A stretch of DNA of 57,116 bases, counting the filler, from Jimgerdemannia flammicorona (Eukaryota): the NCBI GenBank assembly GCA_003990765.1. It is 3 parts of 3 records of this genome, joined end to end, with 100 filler letters (N's around TTAATTAATTAA, not from the genome) between each part and the next. Parts side by side here need not be neighbours in the genome. Positions count along the whole stretch, not along the records: positions 38,149 to 57,116 come from RBNJ01002061.1; 2 more parts are not named here. One strand, 5' to 3'. This document shows, one piece after another, positions 232 through 54,504 of the stretch. The notes under the pieces are model-generated. The model was not told the DNA's origin, ran no database searches, and was given only the letters and a program-made list of their open reading frames with translations. Within the stretch, counting starts at the first letter, position 1. Every line of letters begins with the position of its first letter. A program made the position numbers and the translations under genes.

Positions 232-2217
232 TATAAGAGGGTTATTTGTTAGAGTAACTATTATATAGTTCTGGAAGGGGTTTCTGGAAGTTCTGGATAT
301 TCTGGAAGACTATTTTCTTAAGGTCAAGATCAATTTTATATAGAGTACATCCTCTTTACTTATTGATTTCAAGATCAGGTTGACATCTTAACCAAAGTCC
401 CTTTTTTGGACTAGTTCTGGATGTTCAGAATTTTTCATATTTCAGGAAGTTCAAGAAACTAAGAGCAGCTTAGTTGAATTGGCATATTGCTGCAGCCAAT
501 ACCCAATCAGGAAATTTTATGATAGGGTTAGGAGTGGGACCTAATGGAGAGTGAATTTACTTAAGAGTAGTTTGTGGGTTATTAAATAGATTTATTTGCT
601 ATTCATAATATTGCTATACTAAAAGTAGTTGTATGAAGGAATATTGTGGGGAAGCATTCAGAAGTATTCTTATTTGTTTGAGTCTGAGATTCTGAGATCT
701 GGAGAAGGGGGTATTTATACTAATAAGGGGCTATCTGGGCTATATTAAATATGGATGTAGTACTTAGTACCTTTGCTGAGTCAGAATGCAGTCACATAGT
801 ACAAGTGTGATCTGACATATCAAGAGACCATCTGACTGCTAAGTTATTTATAGATTTAGATGCCATCTGGGTAGTCCTCAATGATATCACTATCTATTAT
901 ATTATCTCTAACGAAGTAGTTATCTAGGAAGAGTTGTTTGTGGATTAACTCTCCTTGTTCACTGAGGTAATAATACATTGAGACTTCATCACCATCTCAC
1001 AGGATAGCATCATCTGTTTCATATACCAGGTAGGGTGTTGGTGGGTAAAGGAGGGATACATTATCTTTACCTTCATCAGATTTGCTATCTATATATCTCC
1101 TATAAGTTATAGCACTATGAGTTACTGAGTTATAGTGAGCTGGTGGCTGTGGTTCATATCATTTATACTCAGGTGGTGTAGTGGTTGGTTTGATCTCAAA
1201 GATTGTCTGATGGTATAGATTGTGTTCTCCAGTCTCTTCATTATGGTTGAAGTAATCAAAGATAAATGCAGATTGGTATTCATACCAATGGTCATTGTCC
1301 CAATAAGTTTCATAGGTGGTTATAAAATATTGTAAGTTCATTGGTAAGGTTGGCAGAGTCATCAGGGTTGGCAGGGATCCTTGGCTTGAGATCATGTTGA
1401 TATCTGAGAGATCATTGTCTTCTGCTTTGTCTTTATCAAATCAGATTATATTATAGATATCCTTCATAGTATATCTGACTTGGGGCATTTGTAGGATATA
1501 GTCATTGGGGTGTGGGAAGGTTCTGTCTGTGGTCTGAATGTACTTGAGATACTTGGGGTTGAGTTCTTATATTATATCATCTATTTGGCCATAGGACAGA
1601 GTAGCAACCATTTTAGTGATAGTGACTTAGAGGTGGGGGATTACTGTGCTATACTCATAGAAGGGTTCTCAATGTTTGTGGGTAATGAGTTTCTGGTGTT
1701 GAGACATCTGGATAATATCTATATCATAATAGTGTTCAACTATGTCTTCCAAGAGGCAGCCAATCTAATAGTAGCTTGAGATTTGTCTGATTTGATGGAC
1801 TTTGCTAAGCATGTTCAGAGCATTCTATTGGGCTTCTACAAAGTAGAGCAGTGCCAGACTATGGATATTCATGAGGGGCAGAGGGAGTGTGGCTTGGTTG
1901 ATAATGGCATTTCAAATATTAATATGAATATAGTTGTAGATCTCAGTGGTCATGTTTGTATATGTTTAAAAGTTGAGGTTGTTTGTTTGGTTTGTTTTGG
2001 TTCTCTGTTTTGACATGTTTCAATGCTTGGTATATATACATTTGGTCCTGATTGATAAGATTCTGTTTATGTGGATCTTGTGTCCCATAACTTTATATTG
2101 ACTCAGCTTTGTATACTGTGACTTTATATTGACTCAGCTTTATGATCTTGTATGTGATTTCTGGATTTGTTAAAAGATTGCATGTGATTTCTGTGGCTTA
2201 GAGGTTGTGTGCTTACA
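232..2217 (-). mobile_element. 3' LTR of Ty3/Gypsy element A (LTR family A, about 2.0 kb, decayed copy)
   Basis: Colinear with 38410-40451. Minus-strand termini TGTAAG...CTTATA (decayed CTTACA). Preceded on the minus strand by a polypurine tract. TATA-like GTATAAATACCCC at about 708-720. Confidence 0.9.
856..1953 (-). pseudogene. Decayed copy of the LTR-A U3 ORF
   Basis: ORF piece 1159..1395 (SSQGSLPTL...YETYWDNDHW...IKPTTTPPEYK) matches the 351-aa ORF at 39197..40252. Several stops look transition-derived. Confidence 0.85.
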
Positions 2218-2230
2218 ACTCTCCCCTTCT
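2218..2230 (-). promoter_or_regulatory. Polypurine tract of element A
   Basis: Minus strand reads AGAAGGGGAGAGT immediately before the LTR start TGTAAG. Confidence 0.8.
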
Positions 2231-2689
2231 TAGCTTTTGACATCCTCATCAGGGCCTTCTAATTTTGTTCTAGTATTATTATACTATTTAGGAGGTCAAA
2301 AGTCTAGTAAGGTCCAATTTTTCAGAAAGTGGCATGCTTGTAGTATAGTTGTCTAATATATTGGATTCATACATTAAAGAGTCATATATTCAATGCTGTG
2401 TGCTGGAAGTGATTCTGATGTCATTCACTACTGGAGAATTTCCTCTAAGGAATCTTCTTAAATGTCTGTACCTCATTTCCCACCAGTGATATGGGGTGAA
2501 TATGCTTGCTTTCAGTTTTGTTATTTTTCTAGATGATCAGTATTCTTTATCTAGACTTGCTGCATTCTTGATTTTATTCATAATAATTATAATGTTTAGG
2601 AGGATAATATATAGTGTGTTTCAATAGATATTGGATTTTCAGGTTCAGTTGTTCAAGGAATCATATTCCTGAACTAAGTCAGTAGCATT

Positions 2690-5600
2690 CTGGAGATTGG
2701 TCTTGGGTTCCCATATTGCATTATAGATTAGGTATCCTTTCCATTTGACAAGGTACTGAGGGTGGTTCTTGTGGCCATATTTATTGAAGATTTGTTCAAC
2801 ACTGTATTCTTCTTGATCATTGATAATGACAGATGCAAGTGGTTTTGTGGTTTGGTTTGGAAATAGCTTATTGTTATTTTATTATATTACTTGAGACATT
2901 GGACATTAAAGACTGGGTGAATTCTAATAGTGTCTGATAGTGCCAATTTGTAGGAAGTGGGAGAGACTTATATAATGACTTCAAATGGTCCATTAAACTT
3001 ACTGTTCAGCTTTGTAGATGGTCTGTATTTGAGGTTATCAACTTGGTATCCTTAGATGTCCAGTAGAACTTTTTCTCCAATGTCAAAAGTCTCTTCTTAG
3101 TAGTGTTGGTTGACATACTATGACTGTTGTTTCTGAGCTCATGATAAATTCTCAATTGCAATCTGACTTAGATTGCACATTTAGAGCAGAAATTCTTTAA
3201 CAGCTTCAACTGTAAAGAGTTCATCAGTAGTTCAGATAAGTGTCAGAGAGGTGTTTGGGTTTTGTCCAGTATTGGCAAGAAATGGGGTCATTCCAAGAGA
3301 GGCTTGCTTATTGTTTTTGTAAGTAAACTCAACTGTAGTGAGGTGATTATGCCAATCATCTTATCTCTAGGAAACATAGTTCCTTAGTATTTGTTCCAGA
3401 GTTCAGTTCATTCTTTTAGTTTGGCCATCTGTTTCAGGTTAAAAGGCTGTGAATAGTACAAGTTTTGTTCCAAGGTTCACATGGAGGGCTTTCTAAAAAT
3501 GGCTGGTAAATTTTGGATCTCAGTTACTAACAATGATCTTGGAAAGACCATGGTAGTAGAAGATATTGTCAAACAAGAGTGTAGCTATGTCTGGTGCTGT
3601 TGCAGTAATAGTAGTTGACACAATAGACTTGTTCACTGAGATAGTCTATGAAGACAATAATGACATCTTTCCCATTCTTGGTTTGGAGTAGTTATACAAT
3701 GAAGTCCATAGAGATTTGTTTCCAATTAGCAGATGGTACTGGAATAGAGTGGAGTAGGCCAGGTTTTACTAGTGTTGAGGACTTGTTCTATTGGTAGGCA
3801 TCACAAGAAGTAATGTAGGTTTTTAGCTGATCTGCTATGTGGGGCCAATAGAAGTTTCAGGAGATAACTTTATAGCATTTGTTAAATCCTAAATATCCAA
3901 CTGTAGGGGCATCATGATATTCAAATAGGATAGTACTTTGGAGGTCTTGGTTATTTGGAATATACAATCTGCCCTTATAGTAGATTATATTATCCTTCAG
4001 TTAGTATTGATGATATTGGGTATACTTATCAGCATAATTACTGTTTAGAATTTCTCAGAGTGCTTGAGCTTCTTTATCATCAGTGCATGCTGTGATGATT
4101 TGTTCCATGATAGAATTTGTAACCAAGGTGAGGGTTTGGATAACTTCTTTGATTAATGGTCTGGAGATTACATTAGCAACAATATTTTCCTGAATTTCAT
4201 AGTCAAAGTTAGTGAGTACTTTTATCTACCTGGCTTGCTTTCAGGAAAGAGTAGCTTGGGTCTTGATATTGACTAATGATTTGTGGTCAGTCAAAACAGT
4301 GAAGTGTGCTCCTTCAAGGTATGGCCACTATTTGATCAGAGTGTCTACAATGGCTAACATTTCCTTCTCATAGATTGCATAGTTAATTTCAGCATCATTG
4401 AACTTTCAAGAGTGATAGGCCACAGGGTGTCCTTCTTGCATGAGTACTACTCCAAGAGCTAGGTCAGAGGCATTGGTAGTAACTTTATATTTTAGGGCAG
4501 AGTTGGATGCTTGAAGTACTGGAGTAGTTATCAAGGTATCCTTTAGTGCTTAAAAGGTGGTATCTTGCTCAGGTCCACAATTTACAAGATTGTTGAAGTC
4601 TTTTTCTTATTTCATGATCCCAGGCTGTTCTTCTTTCTTGCTGTACTTGGTCATTTGAGTAAGGACAGTAGCAATCTTGGCAAAGTTAGCAACAAATCAT
4701 CTGTAATAGTTTGCTAATCCCAGGAATGACTGGAGGTCTTTCAGCTTCTTGGGTCTGGGCCAATTCTTAATTGCTGAGATTTTGCTGGGGTCCACTTTGA
4801 TTCCATTCAGTATGACAATGTGTCCAAGGAATTTGATTTCTTTCAGGAGAAATTCGCATTTGCTAAGTTTTGCAAAGAGTTGGTTTTCTCAGAGTTTCAG
4901 TAGTACTAGTTCAAGGTGTTCAAGATGTTTCTCCAGAGTTCTGCTAAAGACTAGAATGTCATTGATATAGACAATAATAAATTTGTTCAGGTATAGATGC
5001 AGGATAGTATTCATCAGAGTCTGGAAGATTGCTGGAGCATTAGTTAAGCCAAAAGGCATAACTAGGAACTCAAAGTGTCCATAGCAAGTTTGGAAGACTG
5101 TTTTGTAGATGTTTTCTTCTTTCATGTCAATTTTCCAGTAACCATTCCACAAGTCAAAAGAGCTTATGAATTGTGAGTTGGTGAGCCTATTGAATATTTC
5201 ATCAATTCTGGATAGTGGGCAACAGTTCTTGATAGTCTGTTTATTGAGATCACAGTAATCAATATATATTTACAGATCTCTTCCTTTCTTTACAACAAAG
5301 AGGACTAGTACACTGTAAGGTGATATACTGGATCTGATGAATCCTTATTCTAGGAGTTCATTAATTTCTTTCTTAAGTACATCAATTTCTCTCAGAGATA
5401 TGTGGTAGATTGACTTGAAAGCTGGCTTGGCAACTGAAATGGTCTTGATAGCATGGTCTATAGCTCATTTAGAAGGTACACCTTTTGGGAGTTTTTTCAG
5501 AAATATGTTTTGGAATTTCTAGAGTAGGGGTCTAATATGGCTGTCAACTTTGGAAAAATCTTCTTCAGAGTTATCAGTTTCCCCTTTGGATGGGCAGATG

Positions 5601-5811
5601 GAGATGGCAAAGAGAGGATATTTCTTGGCCAATTTCTTAAGCTATAGCTTGTTGATATGGGTGATCTTTGGTCCAGAGTTATTAGAGCTGAGTGGGTCCT
5701 TTTTGCCTTATAGTTTGAAGTTGTGACATCCTTTCTTAATGGTCAGAGAATGGTTTATCCAATTGATCATGGGGTTCTCTTGTTTCAACCATGGAGTTCC
5801 AAGGATGATTT
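2690..5811 (-). pseudogene. pol: Ty3/Gypsy pol relic (end of PR, RT, RNase H, integrase, chromodomain); chromovirus-like
   Basis: RT motifs FEFLVMPFGLTNAP and VYINDILVFS (4889..5152). RNase H ASDLALG (about 4470). Integrase region with GQTKRMN (about 3410). Chromodomain EEYSVEQIF...YLVKWKGY...AIWEP at about 2705-2815. Confidence 0.92.
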
Positions 5812-5857
<46 letters not shown>

Positions 5858-6145
5858 TTTTTTTTTTCCTCTATAGGCTGGAGCCCCATTTATTAACTAT
5901 CTAAAATCCTCATGCCATACCAGCAGCCACATTCTGCATCTCACCCCACCCTACTCTCACACTACAATTTCCAAACCAATAACAATCTAAGCACCTTTAG
6001 GATGTGAGTTGCAACCTCACTGCCTGAGTAACTAGATCCTCCTACCCAGCCTGCCCCACCCAAGAGTGGGTATGGGTTATGAGCCCCAACCACCTCAAGT
6101 ACTTGGCATCTAGTATACCTGGCCTACCCCTATTAGTGCCTCCCC
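5812..6145 (-). mobile_element. 5'-truncated LINE 3' end with poly(A) tail, interrupting element A
   Basis: About 55-nt poly-T on the plus strand. AATAAA about 20 nt before the tail on the minus strand. Decayed LLVWKL(W)CE motif resembles the L1-type ORF2 C-terminus. Confidence 0.6.
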
Positions 6146-7320
6146 ATCTTGCCCATCTTGCCCGTCTTGCCCGGTTGCCCGGTTGCCCATGTCATTTTTC
6201 CCATTTTGCCTGTCTTGCCCATGTCACCTGTCTTGCCATCTTGCCCATCTTGCCCATCTTGCCCATGTTACCCGCATCTTGCCCATGTCGTTTTGCCCGT
6301 TTTGCCCGTCTTGCCCATGTCGCCTGACTTGCTATCTTGCCCATCTTGCCTGTCATACCCGTGTTATCTGCCTTACCCGTCTTGCCCGTCTTGCCCATCT
6401 TACCTGTCGTTTTGCCCGTTTTGCCCATCTTGCCCATGTCGCCCATCTTGTCTTGCCCGTGTTGCCCATCTTGCCTGTTTTGCCAGTCTTACCCGTGTTG
6501 TTTTGCCCATTTTGCCTGTCTTACCCATGTCGCCCATCTTGCCGTCTTGCCCGTGTTGCCCATCTTGCCCGTTTTGCCCATTATGCCCATCTTGCCCATT
6601 ATGCCCATCTTGCTCATTTTGCCCGTCTTGCCCATCTTGCCTGTTTTGCCCGTCTTGCCCATTTTGCCCATTTTGCCCATCTTGCCCGTGTCGTTTTGCC
6701 CATTTTACCCATCTTGCCCATGTCACCCGTCTTGCCATCTTGCGCGTCTTGCCCGTCTTGCCCATGTTACCTGTCTTGCCCGTCTTGCCCGTCTTGCCCG
6801 TCTTGCCCGTCTTGCCCATCTTGCCTGTCGTTTTGCCTGTTTTGCCCATCTTGCCCATGTCGCCCATCTTGTCTTGCCCATGTTGCCCATCTTGTCTGCT
6901 TTGCCGGTCTTGCCCTGTCATTTTGCCTGTTTTGCCCGTCTTGCCCATGTCGCCTGTCTTGCCGTCTTGCCCATGTTGCCCATCTTGCCTGTTTTGCCAG
7001 TCTTGCCCATGTCATTTTGCCCGTTTTGCCCATGTTGCCCATGTCACCCATCTTGCCCATGTTGCCTGTCTTGCCGTCTTGCCTGTGTTGCCCATCTTGC
7101 CCATTTTGCCCGTTTTGCCCATCTTGCCTGTCTTGCCCATCTTGCCCGTCTTGCCCATCTTGCCCATCTTGCCTGTGTCATTTTGCCGGTTTTGCCCATC
7201 TTGCCCATATCGCCCATCTTGCTGTCTTGCCCATCTTGCCCGTCTTGCCTGTGTTGTCCGTGTTACCCATGTTGCCCATCTTGCCCATCTTGCCTGTGTC
7301 ATTTTGCCCGTCTTGCCCCG
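6142..7320. repeat. Tandem array of a 9-bp unit (C/T/G)TTGCCC(A/G)T with higher-order variants, about 1.18 kb
   Basis: Directly visible repeats cttgcccat, cttgcccgt, tttgcccgt, gttgcccat, interspersed with gtcgcccat and gtcgtt variants. Confidence 0.97.
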
Positions 7321-7529
7321 AAATTCTTGAAATCCTTGTAACTTGCTGAAACTAGAAGCTATGGCTATGCCGAAAAGACCAGGCGGGACTCCTATACCTA
7401 AGGGATGAGGTACACCTGTCAGCACTCCTTGGAGCCTATATTTGTGGCCTCCAAAACTTGAGAAGCTCACCATCCTGGTGGCTTAGATGCGGAGCCAACT
7501 GTTTGGTCCGAGTGAAAGGTCCTGCTGAT

Positions 7530-9555
7530 AGCAATCATTGATGTGCTCCATACAGTACATCTTGATCCTGTGAGGACAGACTCCTTGTAGTGCATAACCT
7601 TTTGCAATCTTCCTGCACCATTCTTCTTTGCTCATCCATCCTACTTTCTTTTTCGGAATAGTTACCATATAAGCTTCCTCTTGCTCACTCTCTTCTTCCT
7701 CCATGTCAGACAAGACTCCTTTGTTGACATTGATGGGAATTTGTATCTTCTGTCCCCAATAGGTGATTTGCATCTTCTGAGCATTAAGGTCGATTACTGC
7801 TCTAGCTTTGTGAAGCCATTGATTGCTGATGAGGATGTCATAGTTTGTGGCATTGGTTACAATTATGTCTACAGGGATAGTTACTCCTCCAATCTTGATG
7901 GGGACATCTTGGATCTTTCTTAGAGGAGTGGCTCTTGTGCTATCTACTGTAACAAACACCAACTTGGTTACTTCTTCAACCTCCCAACCTAGGTGGTCTG
8001 CTGCCTTCTTGCTGAGAAGACATCCTCCTGCTCTAGTATTGATGATGGCTTCAAAGATTCTATTCTCGATCTGGTATGTCACATAGCAGAGGTTTTGCGA
8101 TTGTCTTCACTTTCTTCTCCTGAGTCTTCTTGAACATTATTGGCCTCAGTTATCTTCCATTCTTACTCCTTGGTTGTTTTAGTGAGTTCAAACCTCATTT
8201 GCTATCTGAATGTTGGGATTTCTGCAAGCTGATCAAAAGTTGCATTGACCTTTTGTTGGCTAAGGTCCTTGAAGATATCATACTTGAAAGTCTTGATCTT
8301 GCAAAGTTTCTTTTCCTTTTCCCCTTCACTGGCTGGAGTGGTTCCTCAGATAATATCTTGAACTGCTTGCTTCAGCTCCATATCTTGGTCTATGTCCTCT
8401 ACTTGGCTTTCTGTAGTAGTTTCATCTGCTTTTCCACTGGGTTCTTCTTGGGTCTTCCCGGCAGTCTCTTGTAGAGCTCTTTGTGAACATCCTTCTTAGA
8501 AGTCTGAGCAGGATAGGCCTCTCATTCTTCTTTATCAGAATCTCCAATTTCTTCAAAGGTAATTGTGTTGGCCTGCTCCTTGTTTCTAGTAGCATTACTT
8601 AGCTGGGCCTTGTGCTTGGTTTCACTCATGCATTCGTAGGAGTAGTGGCCTTCTTCTCCACAGGTGTAGCAGGTATCTTTCTTCTTGTCTGAGGTGGCAG
8701 CAAACTTCTGGACAGAGTGGCAGTCTCTTCCTCTGATTTCTTTTACCACATCTCTCAGGTGGACAGTCATTTCTGCAAACCTCTTGATGAGTTTCTCCAA
8801 AGGGTTACTGTTCTTTTACTGCTCTGTAGCTTTGGGCTGAGGTGTATTTCAATTGATCATTGTGGTAGGGATCATGCTGGTTGCCTTAGGTGCTTCAATT
8901 CTGACTTCTGTAATTCTCTCCATTGTATTGTCTTGTGGGTATCTAGCTATCCAGTATCGCTGAGCATAAGTGACCTTTTGTGGCAGATCTAGAATCACTG
9001 GTGATGAGTGGATGGCATAGCTATCTCTGGGTGGACTCCTTTCATAAAGGTTGCTTCAGCTACTTGGTCTTGGATAACATCAGCATAATCTGCAAGGATT
9101 ATCTGATATCAGATTCTTGTGTATAATATGTTTAGATCTTTGCTCATTCCTTGGTATATTGTATTGAGCTGGTCCTTTAGAGCTTGCTTGATCTCATCTA
9201 TGTAGTAGGTAGTTCAAAGCCAGGTCTTCTGTGCTATCAGTATAGCATCGGCATCATTTTCCACATAGTTTACAGCTGTGAATACTGCTCTTGCAGGGCC
9301 TTGTAGGCTAAAGAGCATAAGGGCTACTTGCTATATTGCTGTCAGGGTCCTTACAGCGGCATACTGCTCGAAATCATCAATGAAGGTGATGATAGATTCA
9401 TCTGAGGTATATCCGTGGAATACTGGTGGTCTCATATCCATCTTATCTGGGTATTGGGGCTTAGTTTATATGGTTGTTTGGGTAGTGGCAGTTGTTCATT
9501 GTTCAGCTTGAAAGTGAGGAATTCATCTTAAATCACCAGCCAATGGGCACCAAGT
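7530..9555 (-). mobile_element. gag: Ty3/Gypsy element E, truncated (gag with CCHC knuckle plus aspartic protease)
   Basis: CYTCGEEGHYSYEC (8522..8800). Protease AII(D/N)TRAGG...DILISNQWL (7483..8082). Colinear with gag-PR of element D. Possible PBS TGGTGCCCATTGG next to the LTR at about 9540-9552. Confidence 0.9.
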
Positions 9556-20889: not shown

Positions 20890-20890
<1 letters not shown>

Positions 20891-20964
<74 letters not shown>

Positions 20965-20968
20965 GGAG
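20891..20968 (-). mobile_element. Minimal retroposed insertion (CTCCC plus poly-A) with target-site duplication
   Basis: TTACTTAATG (20881-20890) and TTACTTGATG (20969-20978) flank a T tract plus GGGAG inside the integrase region. Confidence 0.85.
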
Positions 20969-26792: not shown

Positions 26793-26819
26793 ATATATAT
26801 ATATATATATATATATAAA

Positions 26820-30518: not shown

Positions 30519-30649
30519 AATTCGGTGGGTCCTGGAGATTTGTAGATAAGTTGGTTGGCCTTGTGGAATATTTAATACCTTTCAAAATAATAAAAAGGTA
30601 AAAAACCCTAAGGACTCAGCCTGAAGTTTGCGGTCCAAGTAGGCAGTGG

Positions 30650-31295: not shown

Positions 31296-31635
31296 GAGTC
31301 TGGGGTAGAGGGTGCTTCTGGTGATCAGAGGGTGCTTCTGGCAGTTGGAGGACATTTCTAGTAGTCGAAGTCCACTGCAGATTCAGGCCCTGTCACCAGT
31401 TCAGGTCCTATGAGCACCCTGGCCCTACACTGTAGTGCCACACTAATGGCACTGCAGAGCAGGGCCAAGAGACTGGTAGGGCTCTACATAATGGCTAAGC
31501 TAGTGCTACAGAAGATGTGCCCAGCCCAACCCCCCACATAAGACTGCCCAACTCATACAAAATAACTGCCTAACTCTCATGAAAGACTGCTTATCTCTTA
31601 TGAAAATTGCCTAATCCTTACAAAAACTGCTCCAC

Positions 31636-33320
31636 CTACTGGTCCCAGGCCTTGATGAGCCTATCATCTATTGTGAGTGCAACGACTATTGTTTCTGAGC
31701 TCTCCTCAAAGGCAATAGTGCCATAGTAGTTATGTGGTTGGAAGAGGATAGCTATATTGACCACAAACAGGACTTCAAAACCATAGGTGAGATCATACCA
31801 GACTCCACCGCTATCCTCCCAGGTTGGGCCCTTCCTTTCCAGAATGTAAAACATTATTAGGGTGATATTGTTGTCTATGTGTATGGGCAGAGAAAGGTTG
31901 CACCCAACATATTTTGATGTGATGTGAGCATATAGTTGGGTGAACCCTTGGTCCAGGACCTCATACTGCCAGGCTGTACTGGTGGATACCTGCCCCTGGT
32001 CCAGCCCCAAGAGCCCCGGCTTGGAAACCTGCCAAAATGGATAGCAACTAGTCAGTCCTTTTTATATATAGGGGGGCAGAAGCCTCCTGGGCCGCAGAAA
32101 TCCCCCAGGCTGCAGCACCCCAAAAATGTGAAGCTCCTCACCTCATACGGCATACCAAGAATATATATATAGCCATGCTGAGATCACCACCAAGCTGGCC
32201 TGCCATATACTCTACCAATCTACTCAAAGAACCCCAGATTATAGCCACCATTGCCACACAGGCTGTGTCATACTCATGTGCAGTTTGCTCTTCAATAGCA
32301 CTTCTAAAGTTCTGATAGGGGTACAGAATCTTATATATCTCTGGATTTGTATAAAAAAGAGTATATCAGTGAAGAGTGTGATTTATCTGGAGAGGAGTAA
32401 AAAAAAAGGGAGATGAGTGTGAGAGATTTCAGAACTCTGGAACCCACTCTTTGTCAGTATTGCAGTATACTCAATTCCCATCCAAACTCCCCCTCCTTGC
32501 TTTTTTCACCCCCTCTTTTCTGTCATCTAGTATTTGATACAATCCTCGCAAATCTCATTAATGTGGTGGCAAAGCTTATCACCATAGAGGTTTCTTACCA
32601 CCATCATAACTACCTCTCCATGTTCATTAATAAAGATATGGTTCTCTTTGTCATTAGTTACTTCTGCTGACCAATAGACCCCTTGGTTGAGAACAATTGG
32701 CTCTGATTCAAATGTAGACCCCCAAGCCTTGATGATAATACTAGTACTGCTTATGCTGAACATCTTGCCCTTGAACTTCTCTATTTTATCAGACACCAGA
32801 CATGGTTAAACTCGGGTAACTTTGAACTCTCCTTTTTAATGAAACTGAGCCCTGATCTGAGAGACTGAGATAAGTATATGGACAGGTTGTATGCAGATAG
32901 ATTGCATGCAGACAGATTGTATATAGGTGGATTGCATATGGGTGTGGGTGTTTTTTAGGGGGAGACCATATAAAAAATAAAATTAAATAAAACATGGAGA
33001 TGGGTATTTCAGAAAAAGAGCATGAGTGAGTGAGTAAGTGAGCTGTATGCCAACAAGTTACATGCCAATGAGTTGCACAAGATTGCTCATGAAGGCTTGC
33101 TTCTGTTCCTTTTGAGACCTCCACCATGCAATACATTGACTCAACAGCTCAGCCACCAAAGGCATGCCCTGCAACGTCCTCCAACCTTTCTTCATCTTGA
33201 CCAGATGTTGTGAATAAAGTTGACAGATCTCACCATAGAGCTGTGGACCCTAAGAAGAGCATGAGGTGAATCAGATTGTGCTGGAGGAATTTAAACAAGT
33301 AGTAACAGAAAAGAGCAATC
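31636..33320 (-). pseudogene. Putative 2OG-Fe(II) dioxygenase (TET/JBP-like) cargo gene, multi-exon
   Basis: Last exon (31636..32010): LSLPIHIDNN (HxD), SGGVWYDLTYGFEV, AILFQPHNYYGT. Upstream exon IFINEHGEVVMMVVRNL (32527..32796). GT-AG intron at about 32029-32141. The 5' boundary is uncertain. Confidence 0.6.
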
Positions 33321-33907
33321 TACATCTACTACTGGCTACTCCAAAAAGGCTACCACATATATAGCTGTGAGGTCTGTGAATTCTGAGGTCCAAAGGGCTG
33401 CTATGAGTTGTTACCAGAGTTCACCCTTATCCCTGCCATCACTATCACCATTGCTATCACCATTGCCACCACTGTCATCTCTTTGGCTCTTGATGAGCAG
33501 CTTGTGTACTGTCTATATGAGAAAAAATCTAACATTATCAGTAGAGAGTGCATTTCCACCTTGAATACTCCCTCTTTTGATGATTATTGCAGAGTGAAAA
33601 ATAAGTAGACTGGACCAACATATGAATTAAGAGCTACTGTTTTGTTTGCTCATGATGTGGTAAGAAAGAACAAAGAACAAAGAAAAGAGAGGGAATAAAG
33701 GAAAGAGTGATATCACTAAAGTATGGTAGGAAAAAAAAAACAAGAGCAAAATGAACAAAAGAAAGGGTGATGTCACCAAAGATTTCAATCCAGATGGATC
33801 AATCCAGATAGATCAGATCACAAGACCATCCAAGTTGATTCAAATCCATTATATGACAAACCTGAATCAAATCTCATCTGAATCAACTTCATTTGTTCAG
33901 AGCACTA

Positions 33908-35594
33908 CTTGTCATTAGGTTAGTATATATTTTGAGAGAAGTCTTAAAACAAAATAAATTTTAATAGTTATTTATTTTATATAAATTTACTAACTAAAAA
34001 TTTCAAGTACAGATTTTGACTATTATAATAGATAATACTACAAATAATATAGTATTTTTCAGAATTTTAGTGGTTAATATTTAATAGGAAAATATAGTCT
34101 TTAGTATAGAAAACTACTATATATATTGTCAGATCTATATACTGAATCTTGCTATTCAAGATTATCTTATATATATAGATAAAACATCTGAAAGTAAAGA
34201 AATCCTGAGTATTGTTTTCAAGTTATACAAACTGATTATATTGATCTAATCATCTCTACAATAATAAGACAAATTTACTATATAGTATAAGATAATCAGA
34301 TTAGTCCTAAAGAGCTAATATTAAATGTCTATATATATTGAAACTTGATATTTACAATGATCCAGCATATACTGGAGTTTGCTATAGTATATATTCTTTT
34401 TTTAATTAATTGAAGTAAATTGTTTCAGATGACTAAGAATTATTAATAAATTTCAAAACAGAAATTTTTTTTTTTTAAAAAAAAAAAAAAAAGCTAATAG
34501 ATTTCATAGTTACTGTTGATAAGAAAATATAGAGTGATGAAAGTAAGTAAGATATACTAAAAAATGTTATCAGAGTTTTAAAAATAAGTAATAATTACTA
34601 TTTATTTTGTCCGCCTCTATATAGTAATATAACAATTTACTATTTTTAACTATCAGTGTTTTGATAATTATATGAAGAATATAGTTAAACAAATTACTTC
34701 AACAATAAGTTCTATAATACTGGTATATAATCTTTTAATTAATTAATTAGAAGATAAGCTCAAAAACAGACTAAAGAGTAGTAATGATTTCTGGTTCAGC
34801 TCAGATCAGAGAGATACTGTGGAGATTGCTCTAAGCAAGCTTAGAAAATACTACTTCAAAATAGATACTACTATATATTCAATCAGTACAGATATATCAG
34901 TATAGTAGTTATCTCTTTCAAAAAAGAGAAACCTCTGCAAAACTCACTCTCTTTTTCAAAACAGTATTGAATCTATACTTAAAGCTATAATACCATAAAG
35001 ATCAGGACTAGAAGTAGTACTATATTGAGAAAGTCAAGTAATTTATAATTGAAATATACTGGAAAAACTATATACCACTATAAGGTTCTGGCTAAAGTCT
35101 AGACAAATATACTAAATAATCTCTTCTATCATATATTTACTTCAGCAGAAAGAGGAAGAGAGAGCCATCAGTGAAAGAACTGTTGTCAATAGATAAACTC
35201 ACCATTTATCTTACTAGTAACTATGTGATTCTGCTAGAGAGTATAGAGGTACTCAACTAGTAGAAGATGAGTTATCTTCTTATAAGTACATAGTTAGTAG
35301 AGTTAGGTCAATTTTAACTACCATTCTAACTACCATTTTACCTCCTGGGGTATGTAGCCACAGATGTATCAAACAGACTTCCTCAGCCTGTATAGTATAG
35401 CTTAGAACTATCTGGCCATTTCTGCTACTAGTACTCTAGTCAAATAAGTATTCTCTAATAAAGTGGATCTTATTTCTCCTAAAAGATATATACTGAATAC
35501 TGAGGTAATCCAGACTTATATACATATATCTAAAGTCTTGATAGAGCATAGACTGCAAGTTCTGCAGTATTAAATAAAAGTTATAAATAAATTA

Positions 35595-35642
<48 letters not shown>

Positions 35643-36450
35643 AGTTCAGCTTAGGGCATAAGATAGTAGACAGAGGAAGTGTACCAGAGTTTGTAGTCTC
35701 TCACCAGCTACAAGAAGCTACTCTTGAGTAGCTCAAGTAGGATAGAGATCAACAGGGTAGAGATCAGTAAGATTAGTAGAGAGAGTATGCAAAATTTGTA
35801 GTGCTCTGCTAGCAATAAGGGACAATTCCAAGCTATTAGTTAGTGCAGAAGTCCAGGTTAGAGAGAGTATACAGAATTTGCAGCCCAATGACTTACTGCA
35901 AGAAGTAGCTTTAAGTAGTCAGATTTTGATACAGATTTAGGCTCTATGAGCATCCTGGCCCTATACTGTAGTACTATACTAGTAGTATTACAAAGTAAGG
36001 TTAAGAGACCAGTAAAGCCCAGTAAAAAGCTAAACTAGTACTATAAAAAGAGACACCTGACTGCCTAACCTTTACAAAAGATTATCTAATCTTTATAAAA
36101 CTGCTCCATCCACTAGTCATAGACCTTGATGAGCCTATCATTTATTATAAGTATGATGACTCTAGTATCTGAGCTCTCCTCAAAGGCAATGATACCATAG
36201 AGGTCATGTAGTTAGAATAGAATAGCTGTATTTGCTATAAACAGAACTCTGAAACCATAGGTAAGATCATACTAGATACTACTACTGTTCTCCTAAGTTG
36301 GGCCCTTTCTTTCTGGAATATAAAATATTATTAGAGTGATATTGTTATCTGTATATATGGGTAGAGAAATATTGTACCCAATATACCCTAATATAATATG
36401 AGTATATGGTTGGATGAATCCTTGACCCAGGATCTTATATTATCAGACAA
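33908..36450 (+). mobile_element. Right part of the older hAT copy (transposase 3' half, three repeat cores, end of the cargo gene)
   Basis: Colinear with about 28860-31975 but far more C>T/G>A mutated. 36110-36450 matches the dioxygenase-like exon. Confidence 0.92.
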
Positions 36451-36845
36451 TAGTACTCTAAATGGATGAAATTGATCCAGATGAGATTTGATTCAAATTC
36501 ATCATATGATGGATTCAAATTAACTCAGATTGGTCTCATGATCTGATCTAGATTGATCCATCTAGATTGATCTATCTCACAAAATCTTTGGTGACATTAT
36601 CCTTTCTTTTATTCATTTTTTACTCTGTTTTTTTTTTTTTCCTTCTATACTTTGGTGACATCACTCTTTCTTTTATTCCCTCTCTTCTTTTATTCTTTCT
36701 TTTGTTCTTTTTCTTTCCTGCTGCATCATGAGCAAACAAAACAGCAGTCCTTAATCATATGTTGGTCCAGTTTACTCATTTTTTTATCCTGCAATAATCA
36801 TCAAAAGAGGGAGTATTTGAGGTAGAAATGTACTCTCTGCTGACA
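36451..36845 (-). mobile_element. Third hAT copy, right terminus only, inverted
   Basis: TAGTACTCTAAATGGATGAAATTGATCCAGATGAGATTTG... is the reverse complement of 33535-33907. Confidence 0.88.
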
Positions 36846-37750
36846 TCCTTTCTCCACTATCTTACCAGTCATAATGGTTTGGTAGACAACCTTCCGAGTC
36901 TACTTTCCACAATTATTACCCCCTCTATCTTGGATTGGTTTGCTGTACCTATTGCAGGGTAGTGGGAGGGAGACAATGGTGATGAGTTGCTCCTTTATTG
37001 GTGTCAGATCAGTGTTTTCTCTACTTTTTCACAGTTTCTGGTGCCTTCGGCTATGTCTGGGGTACATCTGTTTTGGTACAGTGCCTTCTTTCTTTTGCCA
37101 TCACCAACAAGGTGTTGTCTTGGTACATATATCTCAGGCTATGTAGGGAGTTAGCTGATCTTGGGCATCAAGTACTCAGTATAGGTTACCTGCAGGTCCT
37201 TAGTGCCTGTGGTGGGGCCCTCTGGCTTTGGCGAGCTTTCTGACAAGCACAGTTCTGGCATAGGTGACTACTTTTTGGGTGTTGTCAGAATGGGAGAGGA
37301 GAAGGCAATTACAGATAGGAGGAAGGGCGATAACAGTGGACCAGTAGGGTGCCAGGCTGGGGGCAGTTGTCGGGGCTGGGGTGGGTGCTACTTCAGTAGG
37401 GCCTTTTGATTGGTATGGTATAGTTAGGTGGTAGGTGTCACTCTCGGCTTCTTTTGGTAATTCAGTGGGTTGGGCCCTGGTCATCTGAGGGGGTCAGGGG
37501 GCCTGAGGCTATCCATTTTAGGTATCTTGGTTATACTCAACTGGAACTGGGAGCTGATATGGAAATGTGATCGAGGCCTGCAGGCTTAAGTAGTGGGGTA
37601 TTGGGGGTCTCCTCCCACCTCACGTGTAAGTTCTTTACTTACCTCGACTGGGAGAACTAGGCCCTACCCACCGTATTGTACTTTGATGAGGGTTTTTCTT
37701 TACCTGTCATTCTCTTTGGAGTGGTAGGGGCTATTCTATTTGGCTCAGGC
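36846..37750 (-). mobile_element. Probable 5' end and ORF1 start of a LINE
   Basis: Minus-strand MDSLRPPDP at about 37516 (PPDP is common at LINE ORF1 N-termini), followed by Pro/Thr-rich coding-like sequence. Confidence 0.4.
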
Positions 37751-38013
37751 ATGACCTTGTACATATGTTGGGTTCTCGGGCATGCGCTTTTGGTTGTTGG
37801 CATATGGTTGGGTTTCCCCTAGTAGTAGAGAGAGCATGGTATACAGAATGAGGTATGGGTCATTATAGGCCCTGCTATGCCTAGCATGATTGAGCTGCTG
37901 GACAATAGCTAGCCTAGGTTAATGGGGGGGCAGTGCTTAATGGGTGGTGGGAGAGGTTTTTGGCCTATATAGTCTAGATTCCCTTTCAATAAAAATCCAT
38001 GGGACATTGAGTC

Positions 38014-38048
<35 letters not shown>
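37751..38048 (+). mobile_element. LINE-like 3' end with poly(A)
   Basis: G-rich sequence, AATAAA at about 37988, and a poly-A run into the gap. Confidence 0.5.
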
Positions 38049-38148
38049 NNNNNNNNNNNNNNNNNNNNNNNNNNNNNNNNNNNNNNNNNNNNTTAATTAA
38101 TTAANNNNNNNNNNNNNNNNNNNNNNNNNNNNNNNNNNNNNNNNNNNN
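38049..38148. other. Scaffold gap with TTAATTAATTAA linker
   Basis: N runs flank the linker. Confidence 0.98.
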
Positions 38149-38394
38149 GTGAATAGGGTTTCACCTATTTGCTGGTTTAACTTGAGTACTTCTTTCTTTG
38201 AATGAAGTTTATCCCACTTGTTGCAGGTGTGGAGGTCAAATTGTCCTTGTACATCAGGTTCAATTCTCTCCAGATTGTCAGATTGTTCAGATAAATTCCA
38301 GTTCAGAGGTTGGGCTTTATACTAACTTGTAGAAATTCGCAGAAGGGTTTGTAGCAGGGTGAGGAAGCATCTTGAAGTGGAATTGGATTGTAAA

Positions 38395-38406
38395 CTGCTG
38401 CTACCA
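38395..38406 (-). promoter_or_regulatory. Primer binding site, probably initiator tRNA-Met
   Basis: TGGTAGCAGCAG lies 3 nt after the LTR end. TGGTAGC is the usual complement of the tRNA-iMet 3' end. Confidence 0.7.
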
Positions 38407-38409
38407 AGT

Positions 38410-40451
38410 TGTAAGAGGGTTACTTTTTAGGGTAACCGTTACATAGTTCTAGAAGGGTTTTCTGGATATTCTGGATGTTCTGGAAGACCATTTTCTTATG
38501 GTCAAGATCAATTTCATATGGAGTACATCCTCTATGCTTATTGATTTCAAGATTCAGGTTGACGTCTCAACCAAAGTCCTTTTTCGGACTAGTTCTGGAT
38601 GTTCAGGATTTTCTGTATTTCAGGAAGTTCAAGAAACTAAGACCAGCTTAGTTGAATTGGCGTATCGCTACAGACAATAACCAATTAGGAAATTTCGTGA
38701 CAGGGTTAGGAGTAGGACCTAACAGGGAGCAGATTTACTTAAGAGTGGTTTTGTGAGTTATGGAATAGGTTTATTTGCTATTCATGATATTGCTATACTA
38801 GGAGTATTTGTGTGAAGGGATATTGTGGGGAAGTATTCAGAAATATTCTTGTGTGTTCAAGTCTGTTCAAGTCTGAGATTCTGAGGTCTGGGAGAGGGGG
38901 TATTTATACTAGTGAGGGGCTATCTGGACTATGCTGAATATGGATGTATCACTAAGTGCTTTGCTGAGTCAGAATGCAGTCATGTAGTACAAGTATAATC
39001 TGACATATCAAGAGATCATCTGACTGCCGAGTCAGTTTACAGTCATGTCGTACAAGGCTAATCTAACTATATTATGACTGCTAGGTTATTTATGGGTTTA
39101 GGTGCTGTCTGGATAATCTTCGATGACATCACCATCGATTGCATTATCTCTGATGAAGTAGTCATCTAGGAATAATGGTTTGTGAATTACTTCTCCTTAT
39201 TCGCTGAGGTAATAATACATTGGGACTTCGTCTCCGTCCCACAGGATAGCATTGTCTGTCTTGTAGACTGGATAGGGTGTTGGTGGGCGAAGGATGGGTA
39301 TATTGTCTTCTCTTTTGTCAGATTCACTGTCTGCGTACCTTCTATAGATTACAGTACTATGAGTTGCAGGATTGTAGTAAGCTGGCGGCTGTGGTTCATG
39401 TCGCTTGTACTCAGGTGGTGGAGTGGTTGGTTCAATCTTGAGAGTTGTCTGGAGGTACAGGTTGTGTTCTCCAGTCTCTTCATTGTAGTTGAAGTAATCG
39501 GGGGTGAATGCAGGTTGGTATTTGTGCCAGTGGTCATTGTCCCAATAAGTCTCATATGCAGTTATGAACTGTTGCAAGTTTATCAGCAAGTTTGGCGATG
39601 TGATCAGGGTTGGTAGAGATCCTTGGCTAGAGGTCATGTTGGCATCAGAGGGATCATTGTCTTCTGCTTTATCTTCGTCGAAGTGGATTATATCGTAGAC
39701 GTCCTTCATAGTATATCCAACTTGAGACATTTGCAGGATATGGTCATCAGGGTGCGGGAAGGTTCTGTCTGTGGTCTGGACGTATTCGAGGTACTTGTGG
39801 TTGAGTTCTTGTATCATGTCATCGATTTGGCTGTAGGACAGGGTAGCAACCATTTCACTAGTAGTGACTCGGAGGCGGAGAATAAAGGTTTTGTACTCAT
39901 AGAAGAGTTCTCGATGTTTGCGGGTGATGAGCTTCTGGTGTTGAGACATCTGGGTAATGTCTGTATCATGGTGGTGTTCGACCATATCTTCCAGGAGGCG
40001 GCCAATCTGGTAGTAGCTTGAGATTTGTCTGATTCGGTGGGCCTCGCTAAGCATGTTCAGGGCATTCCATCGGGCTTCCATGAAGTAAAGGGGTGCCAGG
40101 CTATGGATATTCATGAGGGGCAGAGGGGGTGTGGCTCGGTTGACAATGGCATTCCAAATGTCAGTGCGGATACAGTTATAGATCTCAGTGGTTATGGTTG
40201 TGTGTTTGGATGTTGTGGTTGTTGTTTGTTTTGGTTCTCTGATTTGACGCATCTCGGTGTTTGGTATATATGCATTTGGTCCTGATTGGTAAGATTCTGT
40301 TTGTGTAAATCTTGTATTCTGTGACTTCGTATTGACTCAGCTTTGTGCACTGTGACTTTGGTTTGACTCAGCTTCATGATCAAGCAGGTGATTTCCAGAT
40401 TTGTTCAGAGGTCACGTGTAATTTCAATGGCTTGGAGGTTGTGCACTTACA
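38410..40451 (-). mobile_element. 5' LTR of a younger family-A element (2042 bp)
   Basis: TGTAAG...CTTACA termini, followed by the PBS. Homologous to 232-2217. Inserted in a LINE. Confidence 0.93.
39197..40252 (-). CDS. LTR-A U3-encoded protein of unknown function (351 aa; ancestrally about 384 aa)
   Basis: Uninterrupted ORF lying wholly inside the LTR, upstream of the TATA box at about 38900. The stop at 39197 is CAA in the other copy, and the frame then stays open to 39098. Confidence 0.8.
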   Translation of the reverse strand: MRQIREPKQTTTTTSKHTTITTEIYNCIRTDIWNAIVNRATPPLPLMNIHSLAPLYFMEARWNALNMLSEAHRIRQISSYYQIGRLLEDMVEHHHDTDITQMSQHQKLITRKHRELFYEYKTFILRLRVTTSEMVATLSYSQIDDMIQELNHKYLEYVQTTDRTFPHPDDHILQMSQVGYTMKDVYDIIHFDEDKAEDNDPSDANMTSSQGSLPTLITSPNLLINLQQFITAYETYWDNDHWHKYQPAFTPDYFNYNEETGEHNLYLQTTLKIEPTTPPPEYKRHEPQPPAYYNPATHSTVIYRRYADSESDKREDNIPILRPPTPYPVYKTDNAILWDGDEVPMYYYLSE

Positions 40452-43400
40452 CAAAGAGAGTAGGTCACCCAAGGACCCTCAAGAGGAGGTTCGCATCTCC
40501 TACACCTTCTGCAACAGAGGCACCCATCTCCCTCCTTATAGTTCAGCTGCTCTCTTCAACCACCAGACTCACAAGCAGTATAACCTCTTAGGGAAATCTA
40601 CAAGGCCAAGACCTCTCCTAATCACTGGTGTCACAAGAGTATCCCAACTGATCTGGGACCTCTGCCCTGCCCAAATCCAATCCCTAGCCACCTTTATCAG
40701 CCTCTTCACCACCCAAGCTAGGAAGTCAAGGTAGTAGGCCACATACTACAGCTTGGGGAACCAGTATACATTCAGAATTGCTACCTGCCCTGCTAGAGAG
40801 ATATGGCAGCCTCCTCAACCTCGAAGGGCCTCTCCCTAAGCAGCCACCCTGTTCTCCCACCATACTTGCGGCAGGACAGAGCCATATACAGAGAGGAAGA
40901 TGCCCAGATACTATACCACCTCACTAATAGGGACAATTGTTCCAATGATATCCCCACCCATCAGCCCATTCCCCAGCACCATAGTCTCGCACTTATGCCA
41001 GTTGAGCTTCACCCCAGAGTGATCCTCATCCATTCCACTGCCTCCTTAATTGCCTTGACATCTGCCACAGACCCAAGGCCAACTGCCATATCATCCGCAA
41101 ATGCTCCCACCTTCCACACTATGCCATAGATAGAGAGCCCTACCACCTTCCAGCGAATTCTATCTATCAAAGGTTCCAAAGAGAGAGCATAAAGGATAGG
41201 GGACAGGGGGTCTCCCTAAGGAACCTCTCTTTCCAAGGTAAACACCAGACTATAGTGACCATTATACATCAGTGCCACCCGACTGCCTTCTAGCAGACTC
41301 AATATAGAAGCCTGAAATTCTGGGGGAATACCAATATGATCCAACACCTTGCCCAGCCAAACCTACCAGACCCAGTTATAGACCTTCTCCTGGTCCAAGA
41401 AAACCAATCTTCCATCCAGACCACAAGCCCAGGCCCCTTTAATAGCATCATGTCTTCTAACCATACTCATCAAACCCTATCATAGGCCTTCCTCTAGTTC
41501 AAAAAAATCAGTTATTTATTTACTCTAGTAGTGTAAGCTCCTCTAATAATACTATACACCTAGGCTGTCTTATCTCTGATCAGACATCTCTCTACAAATT
41601 CTCTCTGCTCAGCCCCCAATACTTGCTGAGTCACTCCTTACAGCCTAGTTACTAGTATCTTTATAACCAGCTTATGATCTATATCCAGAAGTATAATTAG
41701 TCTCTAGTTTTTCCACTCCTCTCTCCTCCTCTTATTCTTAAACAATAGAGTCACAAGACTCAAGTACTGCTCCCCAATCTACTCTCCTGAGCTAATGATC
41801 TCATTTTACATCTCTGTCATCTTCTTCAGAATTAACTTGACTTCTGTCATCTTCTTCTAAAAATCCTATGGTAAGCTATCTTTCTCTGATGTTATCCTCA
41901 AGCTTATTATTATCAGTACTTACTAAATCTCATCTCCTCAGACAGAAGTGTCAAGATCACCTAAGCTCTCTGCTGGATCAGAATACTAGTTCTCCAGGTA
42001 CTTTTCAATATCCAGCACTCCTATTCCTCTTTTCTCCTTACTCCACAATTACCTCTACTATTTGCTCAACTGGTCCAAAATCTTTAGTGTCCCAACAACC
42101 AACTCCTCTGTCTCATCTAACACTCTCTTATCTCTATCATACTCTTCTCATCTGTAGAAGTCAAGATAAAAACTTTGTTAGCCTATCCCCCTCCTTTAAT
42201 CTCTGCCACCTCAGCTAGGCTATTATGCTCTTTATCTATAGGTCTTCCTTCTGCCTCAGCAACTCCTTCAACTTCTCCACCTCCAGCCCAATCTGCTGGA
42301 TCCTCTAATCTCTCTCCTCACTATTATTCAATAGATCTGTCTATAATACCAACAATCTTACCAACCTCTGAGAGGCCCACTTCACTTGCTTTCTCCTCTG
42401 AGCACCACACATTCTTCCTGCCTCTCCTTAGTACTATTGTGTATCTGATTTTAATCTCCTCTAGTGATCCCCAATTGCTAGCTCTTTTACTCTCTAGCCA
42501 AGTATTCTAGAGCTAATATCTATTATTTATATATCCTATAAGGAGACCTCTCTTAGTAATAAGGTATTTAGATATCAAAGTTCTTTAGATATCAACTCTC
42601 TAGTATTCTGCAGTCAACATCTAGTCAATCCTTAAGTTCAACTCTACCACCCAATGAGTATATACTCTATGATCTCCCATCTAAGTCTCCCAGTATCCAC
42701 TAATGAACTCAGACATTTAACTTTTTCCCAGGCTTTCATACTACTACTTCTATCAGCCATCTCTCTTTCCCCATCCCTTCTCATCATATATCATATTAAA
42801 GTCTCTACCTAAATAGTCAATCTCTTCTTCCACCAATACTCTAGACTCTTGTAGCCCTTGAATTCATTCCACTCTCTCCTCTCTTTCTACTGGACAATAA
42901 TATGACTCAACAGTCAAGGGTCTCTAGTCTGGTCTCTTCCAAACTTCTCATACTATCCTGCTCTCTCAATGTTTAATATCCTTAATATCTCTCTTATCCT
43001 TTCTAACCATAATGCCCACACACTTATACTAAATAGCCACACTACTCTATTTCTTTATTTAGTTCACTTTTTATCACATCTAACATCTTATAATAGAAAT
43101 AAATCCACATTCAGCCCCTTTAGCTAGTAGAAGATATTTCTATATCTCACTACTTCTCATAGCCCATTGATATTTAAAGAGAAGATTCTAGTTATACTAT
43201 ATATTGAATAATATTTCTTGAAGAACAACTGCCTACTCTATAGTTCCATACTCACTACATTGCCAGCAATATCTAGGTTCTTCTCTATCTTAAGCTCATC
43301 TGCCTCTCTCTGCTAAGTCTCTAATACCTCTAAGATCTCTTGACAATCTATACCATCCACAGCTTCCATATCTATCTGGTACTTCTCATATACTATCTGT

Positions 43401-54496: not shown

Positions 54497-54504
54497 AAGT
54501 TCTT

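Follow-up and report, generated by a model that had tools for sequence, protein, structure and literature searches.

A probable accessory gene within the long terminal repeat of a chromovirus from Jimgerdemannia flammicorona

Extra genes are common in retrotransposons that have long terminal repeats (LTRs), but almost all of them are unexplained. Here we analyse one candidate, an open reading frame (ORF) of ~365 codons inside the 2-kb LTR (38410..40451, minus strand) of a Ty3/gypsy chromovirus that we call family A. It lies in a 57,116-nt stretch of the Jimgerdemannia flammicorona assembly GCA_003990765.1, referred to below as the window. The closest described counterpart is the sag gene of mouse mammary tumour virus (MMTV), to which most papers listed for 'LTR ORF' and similar phrases in open-access text relate. 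The sag gene, a sense ORF of ~320-365 codons, is located upstream of the promoter of the LTR, in a long U3 that contains it completely. Each LTR of the DNA form carries a copy, as does the genomic RNA at its 3′ end; expression depends on a subgenomic mRNA or one initiated separately, and the product, Sag, is a membrane glycoprotein. Other 3′-terminal accessory genes reach into U3, among them nef of the human and simian immunodeficiency viruses (HIV/SIV) and bel2/bet of the foamy viruses. These begin internally and merely overlap U3.

Plant LTR retrotransposons offer a second point of reference. According to two papers (PMC11728184, PMC7264820), their accessory ORFs (aORFs) are family-specific extra genes that lack known domains and are conserved across copies, and many have a high content of disorder and proline. 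The same papers propose that they serve as accessory proteins of the retroviral type (PMC11728184, PMC7264820). The aORF sites given there are internal, some lying between the 5′ LTR and gag and others between pol and the 3′ LTR (PMC11728184, PMC7264820). Examples include the 5′ aORFs of Tekay, the 3′ aORFs of Athila/Tat, and the antisense ORFs of Grande (gene23), RIRE2 and Retand (PMC7264820, PMC11728184). Neither 'in the LTR' nor 'inside the LTR' appears as a phrase in PMC7264820. Exact-phrase searches of open-access text returned no Ty3/gypsy element with an ORF wholly in the LTR, a result that leaves the absence of such elements unproven.

In its presumed layout the family A ORF resembles sag. 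It is a sense ORF of similar length that appears to be enclosed by a long U3, with the presumed LTR promoter downstream of it. The DNA form would carry it in either LTR, the genomic RNA would have it at the 3′ end, and its translation would call for a subgenomic mRNA or one with a start of its own. The likeness does not extend to the protein, which has no sequence similarity to Sag, no Pfam match and no hydrophobic segment (0.8 at most on the Kyte-Doolittle scale), so that neither Sag homology nor a type II membrane anchor was found. Nor does it extend to the host element, a Ty3/gypsy chromovirus without env rather than a betaretrovirus. Unlike nef and bel2/bet, the ORF has both its start and its stop inside the presumed U3. 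With the plant aORFs it shares the restriction to one family, the lack of a known domain and coding constraint, the last seen in a ratio of non-synonymous to synonymous substitution (Ka/Ks) of 0.35 and in two further open fragments. Unlike them, it is not internal, since its start and its stop are both within the LTR, past the polypurine tract. Plant aORFs yielded no sequence relative, as far as these are reachable via protein searches. We rate the ORF as a new positional variant of LTR-retroelement accessory ORFs, outside the Sag, env-like and described aORF groups. Our reading, to which we assign a probability of about 0.65, is that the family A LTR carries a ~365-codon sense accessory gene within U3, most likely expressed from a short mRNA of its own.

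The family A long terminal repeat

The window is made up of three contig pieces (1-18974, 19075-38048 and 38149-57116), and the 2-kb unit is found on the first and the third. Because the copies sit on separate pieces, they represent two different insertions. Self-BLAST aligns 38412-40451 with 234-2217 in the same orientation, with sharp edges and 79.6% identity over 2050 columns; this is the one further copy of the unit within the window. The unit at 38410..40451, hereafter copy 2, ends in TGTAAG...CTTACA, and copy 1 (232..2217, minus strand) ends in TATAAG...CTTACA, giving 6-nt inverted termini of the TG...CA type.

The flanks of the two copies match the two ends of a chromovirus. The TGG with which primer binding sites start is complementary to a tRNA's CCA end, and copy 2 is followed by a TGG-type, primer-binding-like site, TGGTAGCAGCAG (38395..38406, minus strand), 3 nt past its CA end, as a 5′ LTR would be. 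The exact string TGGTAGCAG occurs a single time in the window, and with one mismatch there are 17 matches against 12.3 expected. Beyond it lie the first ~250 nt of the leader of element 2 (38149..38394, minus strand), which are covered by contigs of three sequencing runs and are cut off by the contig edge 260 nt past the LTR. Copy 1 belongs to a decayed family A element (element 1) as its 3′ LTR, since a polypurine tract, AAGAAGGGGAGAG (2219..2231, minus strand), ends one base before it and the chromodomain end of pol adjoins it.

Other copies of the family show the same boundaries. Logan contigs of four public runs were aligned to 38149-40700, and the matching short contigs number thousands. 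Run X1 alone contributed 3689, with 519 at least 99% alike, 1043 at 95-99%, 1515 at 90-95% and 612 below 90%. Soil metagenomes make up most of the runs in which the LTR occurs, with at most 0.30 of the sampled words present. Summed contig depth drops at 40451 and at 38410, that is, at both LTR ends. Loose contig ends at 40451 in runs X2 and X5 read ACTCTCCCCTTCT..., the polypurine flank seen at copy 1. As the same LTR-polypurine junction recurs in other copies, the LTR boundary enclosing the ORF characterises the family and not one locus.

The stretch 38410-40451 is thus a true LTR of a Ty3/gypsy chromovirus, belonging to the high-copy family A and lying on the minus strand. The alternative that the 2-kb unit is a separate repeat or a nested element beside a chromovirus, and no LTR at all, has three gaps in its favour. 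No two-LTR element is present in the window. There is no sign of a target-site duplication, with TTTAG/ACTCT and CAAGT/CAAAG as the non-matching flanks, where each copy is the sole family A LTR on its contig. Finally, no match to a 5′ LTR of element 1 was found upstream of gag in 9000-18974 at word size 7. Such a repeat would nonetheless have to adjoin a polypurine tract and a chromodomain end at one copy and a TGG-type primer-binding-like site at the other, in matching orientation, with inverted hexamers at TG...CA termini and a polypurine junction that recurs elsewhere. We consider it extremely improbable.

Coding constraint on the reading frame

The ORF has different limits in copy 2 and in the family. 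In copy 2 it is open over 39197..40252 on the minus strand (351 codons, from ATG 40252 to TAA 39199-39197), within a stop-to-stop frame of 379 codons (39197..40336). The span common to its relatives is 39098..40195 on the minus strand, ~365 codons from a start reading MTTEIY to a shared TAA at 39100-39098. At the start position, 40195-40193, copy 2 has ATA and copy 1 has ATG (MTTEIY); at 39199-39197 copy 2 has TAA and copy 1 has CAA. The TAA at 39100-39098 is common to both copies and lies 384 codons from the copy 2 ATG. The 19-codon N-terminal extension of copy 2 is not shared, with indels of 2 nt and 6 nt falling between 40252 and MTTEIY. Copy 2 is therefore lightly damaged, with ATA at the shared start and an early TAA that cuts off the conserved tail. 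Copy 1 is a dead copy, in which the ORF (856-1953, minus strand) carries nine premature stops, all of them at sites that differ by transitions.

Several features of the frame point to coding. Dinucleotide-preserving shuffles of the LTR never reached 379 aa (0 of 1000; the longest open frames peaked at 206, around a median of 96). In a MAFFT alignment the two copies differ by no indel within the 1098-nt ORF and by eight events in the other ~950 nt of the LTR, of 6 and 2 nt upstream of the ORF and of 54, 1, 10, 1, 1 and 1 nt downstream. Differences at codon positions 1, 2 and 3 number 65, 40 and 109 (chi-square p 4e-8). Transversions considered on their own follow the same order (4, 5 and 18), with 18 of 27 at third positions (binomial p 4e-4). 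In the contigs of the four runs, none of the 12 best-supported indels (12 of 26) falls inside 39098-40195, which represents 43% of the stretch covered.

Because mutation between the copies is strongly biased, Ka/Ks was estimated with a method that separates transitions from transversions (LPB93), using shifted frames as controls and leaving out codons with stops. The ORF frame gave 0.35 (bootstrap 0.25-0.47), against 1.15 in the sense +1 frame and 1.67 in the sense +2 frame; the three reverse frames gave 1.23, 0.46 and 2.78. The corresponding NG86 values are 0.19 for the ORF frame, 0.75 and 0.86 for the shifted sense frames, and 0.69, 0.33 and 1.48 for the reverse frames. Constraint is seen in both halves of the ORF (0.38 and 0.32). 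Since the stops of copy 1 lie at transition sites, part of the divergence is post-insertion decay, and the true constraint is stronger than these values indicate. The ORF has thus evolved under purifying, protein-level selection during the diversification of the family, with Ka/Ks taken from one DNA pair and four sequences compared in all.

The mutational background needs to be set beside these values. Copies 1 and 2 differ by 295 transitions and 50 transversions. C-to-T change affects 56% of CpG, 31% of CpA, 22% of CpC and 9% of CpT sites, with ranges of 50-80% for CpG, 27-37% for CpA and 6-12% for CpT; CTG is low, like other CpT. The ratio of observed to expected CpG is 0.15 in the window and 0.02 in copy 1. 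This spectrum appears to resemble repeat-directed point mutation more closely than the decay expected from symmetric CHG methylation. A bias of this strength can distort a simple dN/dS, and it could be proposed that the ORF is a chance open frame in a non-coding LTR whose codon-like pattern was produced by context-biased C-to-T mutation. The same bias, however, yields Ka/Ks of at least 1.1 in both shifted sense frames, the third-position excess is present in transversions alone, the shuffles do not reach the observed length, and independent fragments (P0001 and P0002, described next) hold the frame. This explanation is close to refuted and keeps only a very small probability.

True relatives of the protein are few. 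Two, P0001 and P0002, were found among 5.8 billion clustered proteins and 1.84 billion representatives, in searches where 'near' lengths gave one match among 800 candidates, 'shorter' lengths gave one among 50, and longer lengths, i.e. fused forms, were unsearched. P0001 (247 aa, from a 998-bp contig) has 66% identity and 80% positives to residues 134-351. It continues for 33 residues past the copy 2 stop and ends in ...EPLFIDNYFIRDDVIDDDLIAEYPDSI (...YPDSI), where copy 2, read through its stop, ends in ...KPLFLDDYFIRDNAIDGDVIEDYPDST (...YPDST). P0002 (128 aa, from a 1180-bp contig) is 90% identical and starts with MTTEIY. Together, the tail of P0001 and the start of P0002 define a shared gene that runs from MTTEIY to the stop at 39098, ~365 codons.

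A first-pass annotation of the locus had anticipated much of this picture. It described a 351-codon sense ORF at 39197..40252 inside TG...CA termini and upstream of a TATA box, which is reproduced here, with the TATA at 38908-38902. Its suggestion that the stop is a CAA>TAA mutation in a frame that once ran to 39098 (~384 aa) agrees with the CAA of copy 1, the shared TAA at 39100-39098 and the tail of P0001, and the ATG that it noted at MTTEIY in the other copy is found in copy 1, opposite ATA in copy 2, and begins P0002. It had also called the element chromovirus-like, as is now supported by a Chromo domain at E 3.8e-9, and had proposed an accessory gene in U3. In keeping with that proposal, Ka/Ks is not near 1 (0.35, 0.25-0.47, against 1.15 and 1.67), indels are not randomly placed (none in the ORF, eight in the ~950 nt elsewhere), and the LTR boundaries enclose the ORF, with the polypurine tract at copy 1, the primer-binding-like site at copy 2 and the flank that recurs at 40451.

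Searches beyond the family returned little. Among the 1.84 billion representative proteins there was no homologue outside the element family, the three matches being the two family members and an artefact. The latter, P0003 (436 aa, E 3.7e-7 over six stretches), was rejected as a relative because it is repeat-inflated, with 24 unrelated Pfam families and no passing stretch. P0003 consists of seven ~62-aa repeats, and a 38-residue motif (...SLSFDKIADFIEKLNNGY...) that it has in common with ORF residues 130-167 is probably due to chance. DNA relatives were absent from metagenome contigs, both with an alignment query (21 pattern matches) and with a single-protein query (60), and from viral contigs (0 of 5 pattern matches). 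Pfam assigned no family to the ORF at E<=0.01 (the best being GrpE, E 0.11) and none to P0001 or P0002. The best ESM Atlas score was 0.79, under the lead level, and the best E in a profile search of the PDB was 0.27. The ORF has no similarity to the element's own gag.

Features computed for the 332 aa between the conserved start and the copy 2 stop describe an acidic, hydrophilic protein, with an isoelectric point of 5.08 and a grand average of hydropathy of -0.72. It lacks a membrane segment (maximum Kyte-Doolittle value 0.8 in a 19-residue window) and in this respect is not env-like. The second half contains 11.7% Pro, 9.9% Tyr and 16.7% Asp+Glu. In a low-confidence structural model, helices are predicted only in residues 17-236, and the N-terminal half looks helical and the C-terminal half disordered.

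The lack of a recognisable function, domain or fold also bears on whether the ORF is a relic, a captured gene or gene fragment that was selected formerly or briefly and is now neutral cargo, still open in a young copy. LTR retrotransposons are documented to capture host sequences (PMC7264820), and neither copy in the window is intact, given the missing start and early stop of copy 2 and the nine stops of copy 1. Set against this, no source for a captured gene is found among the representative proteins outside the family, and the constraint lies in the divergence of two LTR copies, i.e. within the element lineage. P0001, at 66% identity, also holds 247 codons open, tail included, and captured genes are, according to PMC7264820, present in one or a few copies, as compared with thousands of matching contigs here. 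We regard a relic as quite unlikely.

Position within U3 and proposed expression

The motifs of the LTR place the ORF with respect to two possible promoters. Near the 5′ end of U3, both copies have an imperfect direct repeat of ~31 nt, AAGCTGAGTCAA...AAGTCACAG twice (approximately 40319..40374, minus strand, in copy 2). Downstream of it on the same strand are CCAAT at 40289-40285, which reads TCAAT in copy 1, and TATATA at 40270-40265, which is kept in copy 1. By motif positions alone, these sit 70-95 nt upstream of the conserved start codon, and the segment 40265..40289 is a candidate for the ORF's own promoter. The TATATA hexamer does not fit the pattern TATA[AT]A[AT]. The sole match to that pattern in copy 2 (38908-38902; copy 1 719-713) is a canonical TATA box, TATAAATA (38901..38908, minus strand), and the ORF lies at least 190 nt upstream of it. 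The sole AATAAA in the LTR (38770..38775, minus strand; copy 1 596-591) follows 127 nt downstream of this TATA box.

A U3-R boundary usually has this order, with a TATA box first and AATAAA after it. Transcription of the genomic RNA is presumed to be driven by the TATA at 38908, where U3 would end, and the AATAAA at 38775-38770 is presumed to be the polyadenylation signal. On this reading of the motifs, U3 would measure ~1.55 kb, of which ~1.1 kb would be the ORF. Rfam gave no match anywhere in the window. In run X9, the only run guessed to be RNA, summed contig depth was 790-907 over 38579-38836, a 260-nt part of R/U5, but 0-63 in U3 and 0 in the leader; neither ends nor levels of RNA can be read from contigs.

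The same motifs permit a different assignment, in which the CCAAT/TATATA pair at 40265-40289 is the genomic promoter and the ORF, pushed into the LTR, is a first cistron in R/U5 or the leader, comparable to a Tekay 5′ aORF. The pair stands 70-95 nt before the conserved ATG and right after a direct repeat of a kind typical of enhancers, a transcript that began ~30 nt past TATATA would have the MTTEIY methionine as its first AUG, and Tekay elements do have 5′ aORFs (PMC11728184). This arrangement would, however, require an R of ~1.5 kb if the sole AATAAA (38775) is the poly(A) signal. It also passes over the canonical TATA, which precedes AATAAA by 127 nt in the usual U3-R layout, as in the sister family B described below, in favour of an upstream hexamer that fails TATA[AT]A[AT]. 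We consider it unlikely.

If the ORF is instead a U3 gene, its life cycle would follow from its position. Replication of LTR elements turns the single U3, at the 3′ end of the RNA, into two, one at each end of the DNA, and the ORF would for that reason be doubled at each cycle. In the genomic RNA it would lie downstream of pol and the polypurine tract, out of reach of scanning ribosomes, and would consequently need an mRNA of its own. The route that we favour is a monocistronic mRNA running from CCAAT/TATATA to the AATAAA of the LTR. Initiation ~30 nt after TATATA would bypass the upstream ATGs at 40377, 40275 and 40252 and make the conserved ATG the first AUG, and either LTR, solo LTRs included, could express the ORF. 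A second route would be a spliced subgenomic RNA, as in MMTV sag. Our preference for an own promoter over splicing is tentative; it reflects motifs that are in place and conserved, and the absence of any polypyrimidine-AG splice acceptor before the ATG on reading the sequence. The protein would then act in trans for the element, like retroviral accessory proteins.

A more ambitious version of this scheme treats the LTR as a self-contained cassette, with an enhancer-like repeat, CCAAT/TATA, the 365-codon ORF and a poly(A) signal, such that every LTR, even a solo one, expresses the trans-acting protein. We think it unlikely that matters go this far. Were it so, the protein might work for all members of the family, for instance by countering host silencing, or keep their copy number in check, and its dose would depend on how many LTRs there are and not on how many elements are intact.

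A number of points weigh against a U3 accessory gene. The assignment of U3, R and U5 is drawn from motifs and not from a transcript, a start, a poly(A) site or a splice, and the upstream CCAAT/TATATA could be the genomic promoter, which would place the ORF in a very long R or leader. Copy 2, without the shared ATG and with an early stop, may itself be non-functional. Neither a two-LTR element nor a target-site duplication is available within the window. The selection test is based on one DNA pair, the two further relatives being protein fragments, and the view of whether most copies keep the frame covers 40 of the 567 variant sites and 12 of the 26 indels. AlphaFold2, run on a three-sequence alignment, gave a mean predicted local distance difference test score of 32 with no residue at 50 or above, and backs no function. 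Two PPxY motifs of copy 2 are absent in P0001 and are given no weight.

A selected gene wholly in U3 would alter both expression and inheritance, as it would be doubled each cycle, survive in solo LTRs and be untranslatable from the genomic RNA. It would provide a test case for the evolution of retrovirus-like accessory genes and subgenomic expression outside retroviruses. The ORF also accounts for the length of the family A LTR, ~5 times that of the family B LTR. Family A is high-copy, with near-identical copies in public runs, and is therefore open to experiment.

Internal regions, the sister family and other repeats

The internal region of element 1 (2660..9420, minus strand) was analysed with Pfam on read-through translations, with X at stops. 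From a gag that begins at ~9420 (minus strand), it contains on that strand a CCHC motif (8627-8674), protease (7756-8109), reverse transcriptase (RT; 4814-5248, E 4.9e-26), RNase H (4205-4492), an integrase zinc finger (3776-3952), SH3_Tf2-1 (2884-3078) and a chromodomain (2660-2806, E 3.8e-9). The order gag(CCHC)-protease-RT-RNase H-integrase with a C-terminal chromodomain is thus found over 2660-8674. All three aromatic cage positions of the chromodomain are present (Y in EEYSVE, W and Y in VKWKGY), an arrangement that we take to mark the 'group I' chromodomains of fungal and non-seed-plant elements. Searches with the pol of element 1 gave 5233 proteins at E<=1e-20 among 8000 candidates. The best 120 are for the most part metagenome proteins, and the named matches among them come from streptophytes, with 35-52% identity for Solanum verrucosum, Closterium, Tanacetum and Chara.

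A sister chromovirus, family B, occupies 19106-26812, with further family B sequence at 53393-54963 (plus strand) and a third LTR at ~53403-53815. Over gag-protease, families A and B have ~65% nucleotide identity, and their gene order is the same. The LTRs of family B are ~0.4 kb long, read TGTAAC...CTACCA and have no ORF; LTR A and LTR B show no similarity (best E 0.34). Both LTRs nonetheless start with TGTAA... and have TATA before AATAAA. The families differ in the short, ORF-less LTR of family B and in its dUTPase, which stands where family A has a 9-bp tandem array. The dUTPase domain (E 3.7e-26) is found in an intact 294-aa frame at 22558-23439, between protease and RT, and a search for it in the ESM Atlas returned generic dUTPase clusters and nothing else.

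Within element 1 the 9-bp array (6114-7349, ~1.2 kb) separates protease from RT and occupies the site of the family B dUTPase. It is open in three plus-strand frames of 337-411 aa, and on the minus strand it reads Gly-X-Y, with a Pfam Collagen match at E 5.5e-16.

The contig pieces of the window are separated by two blocks (18975-19074 and 38049-38148), each of the form N44-TTAATTAATTAA-N44. The joiner TTAATTAATTAA has stops in all six frames and the appearance of an artificial linker. Along the window, GC-poor blocks (26-30%) alternate with blocks of 40-50% GC. Decayed fragments of a long interspersed nuclear element (LINE)-like RT are found at 40494-41443 (minus strand) and 48273-49222 (plus strand), in opposite orientations and 65% identical; RVT_1 matches at 41036-41410, and 42 nt separate one of the LINE-like fragments from the family A element to which copy 2 belongs. 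The middle contig carries direct repeats ~5 kb apart with 70-77% identity (28856-30515/33908-35556 and 31585-31965/36059-36439), which are either another repeat family or a large tandem duplication. Long plus-strand A runs are present just inside both ends of this middle piece (19075-38048).

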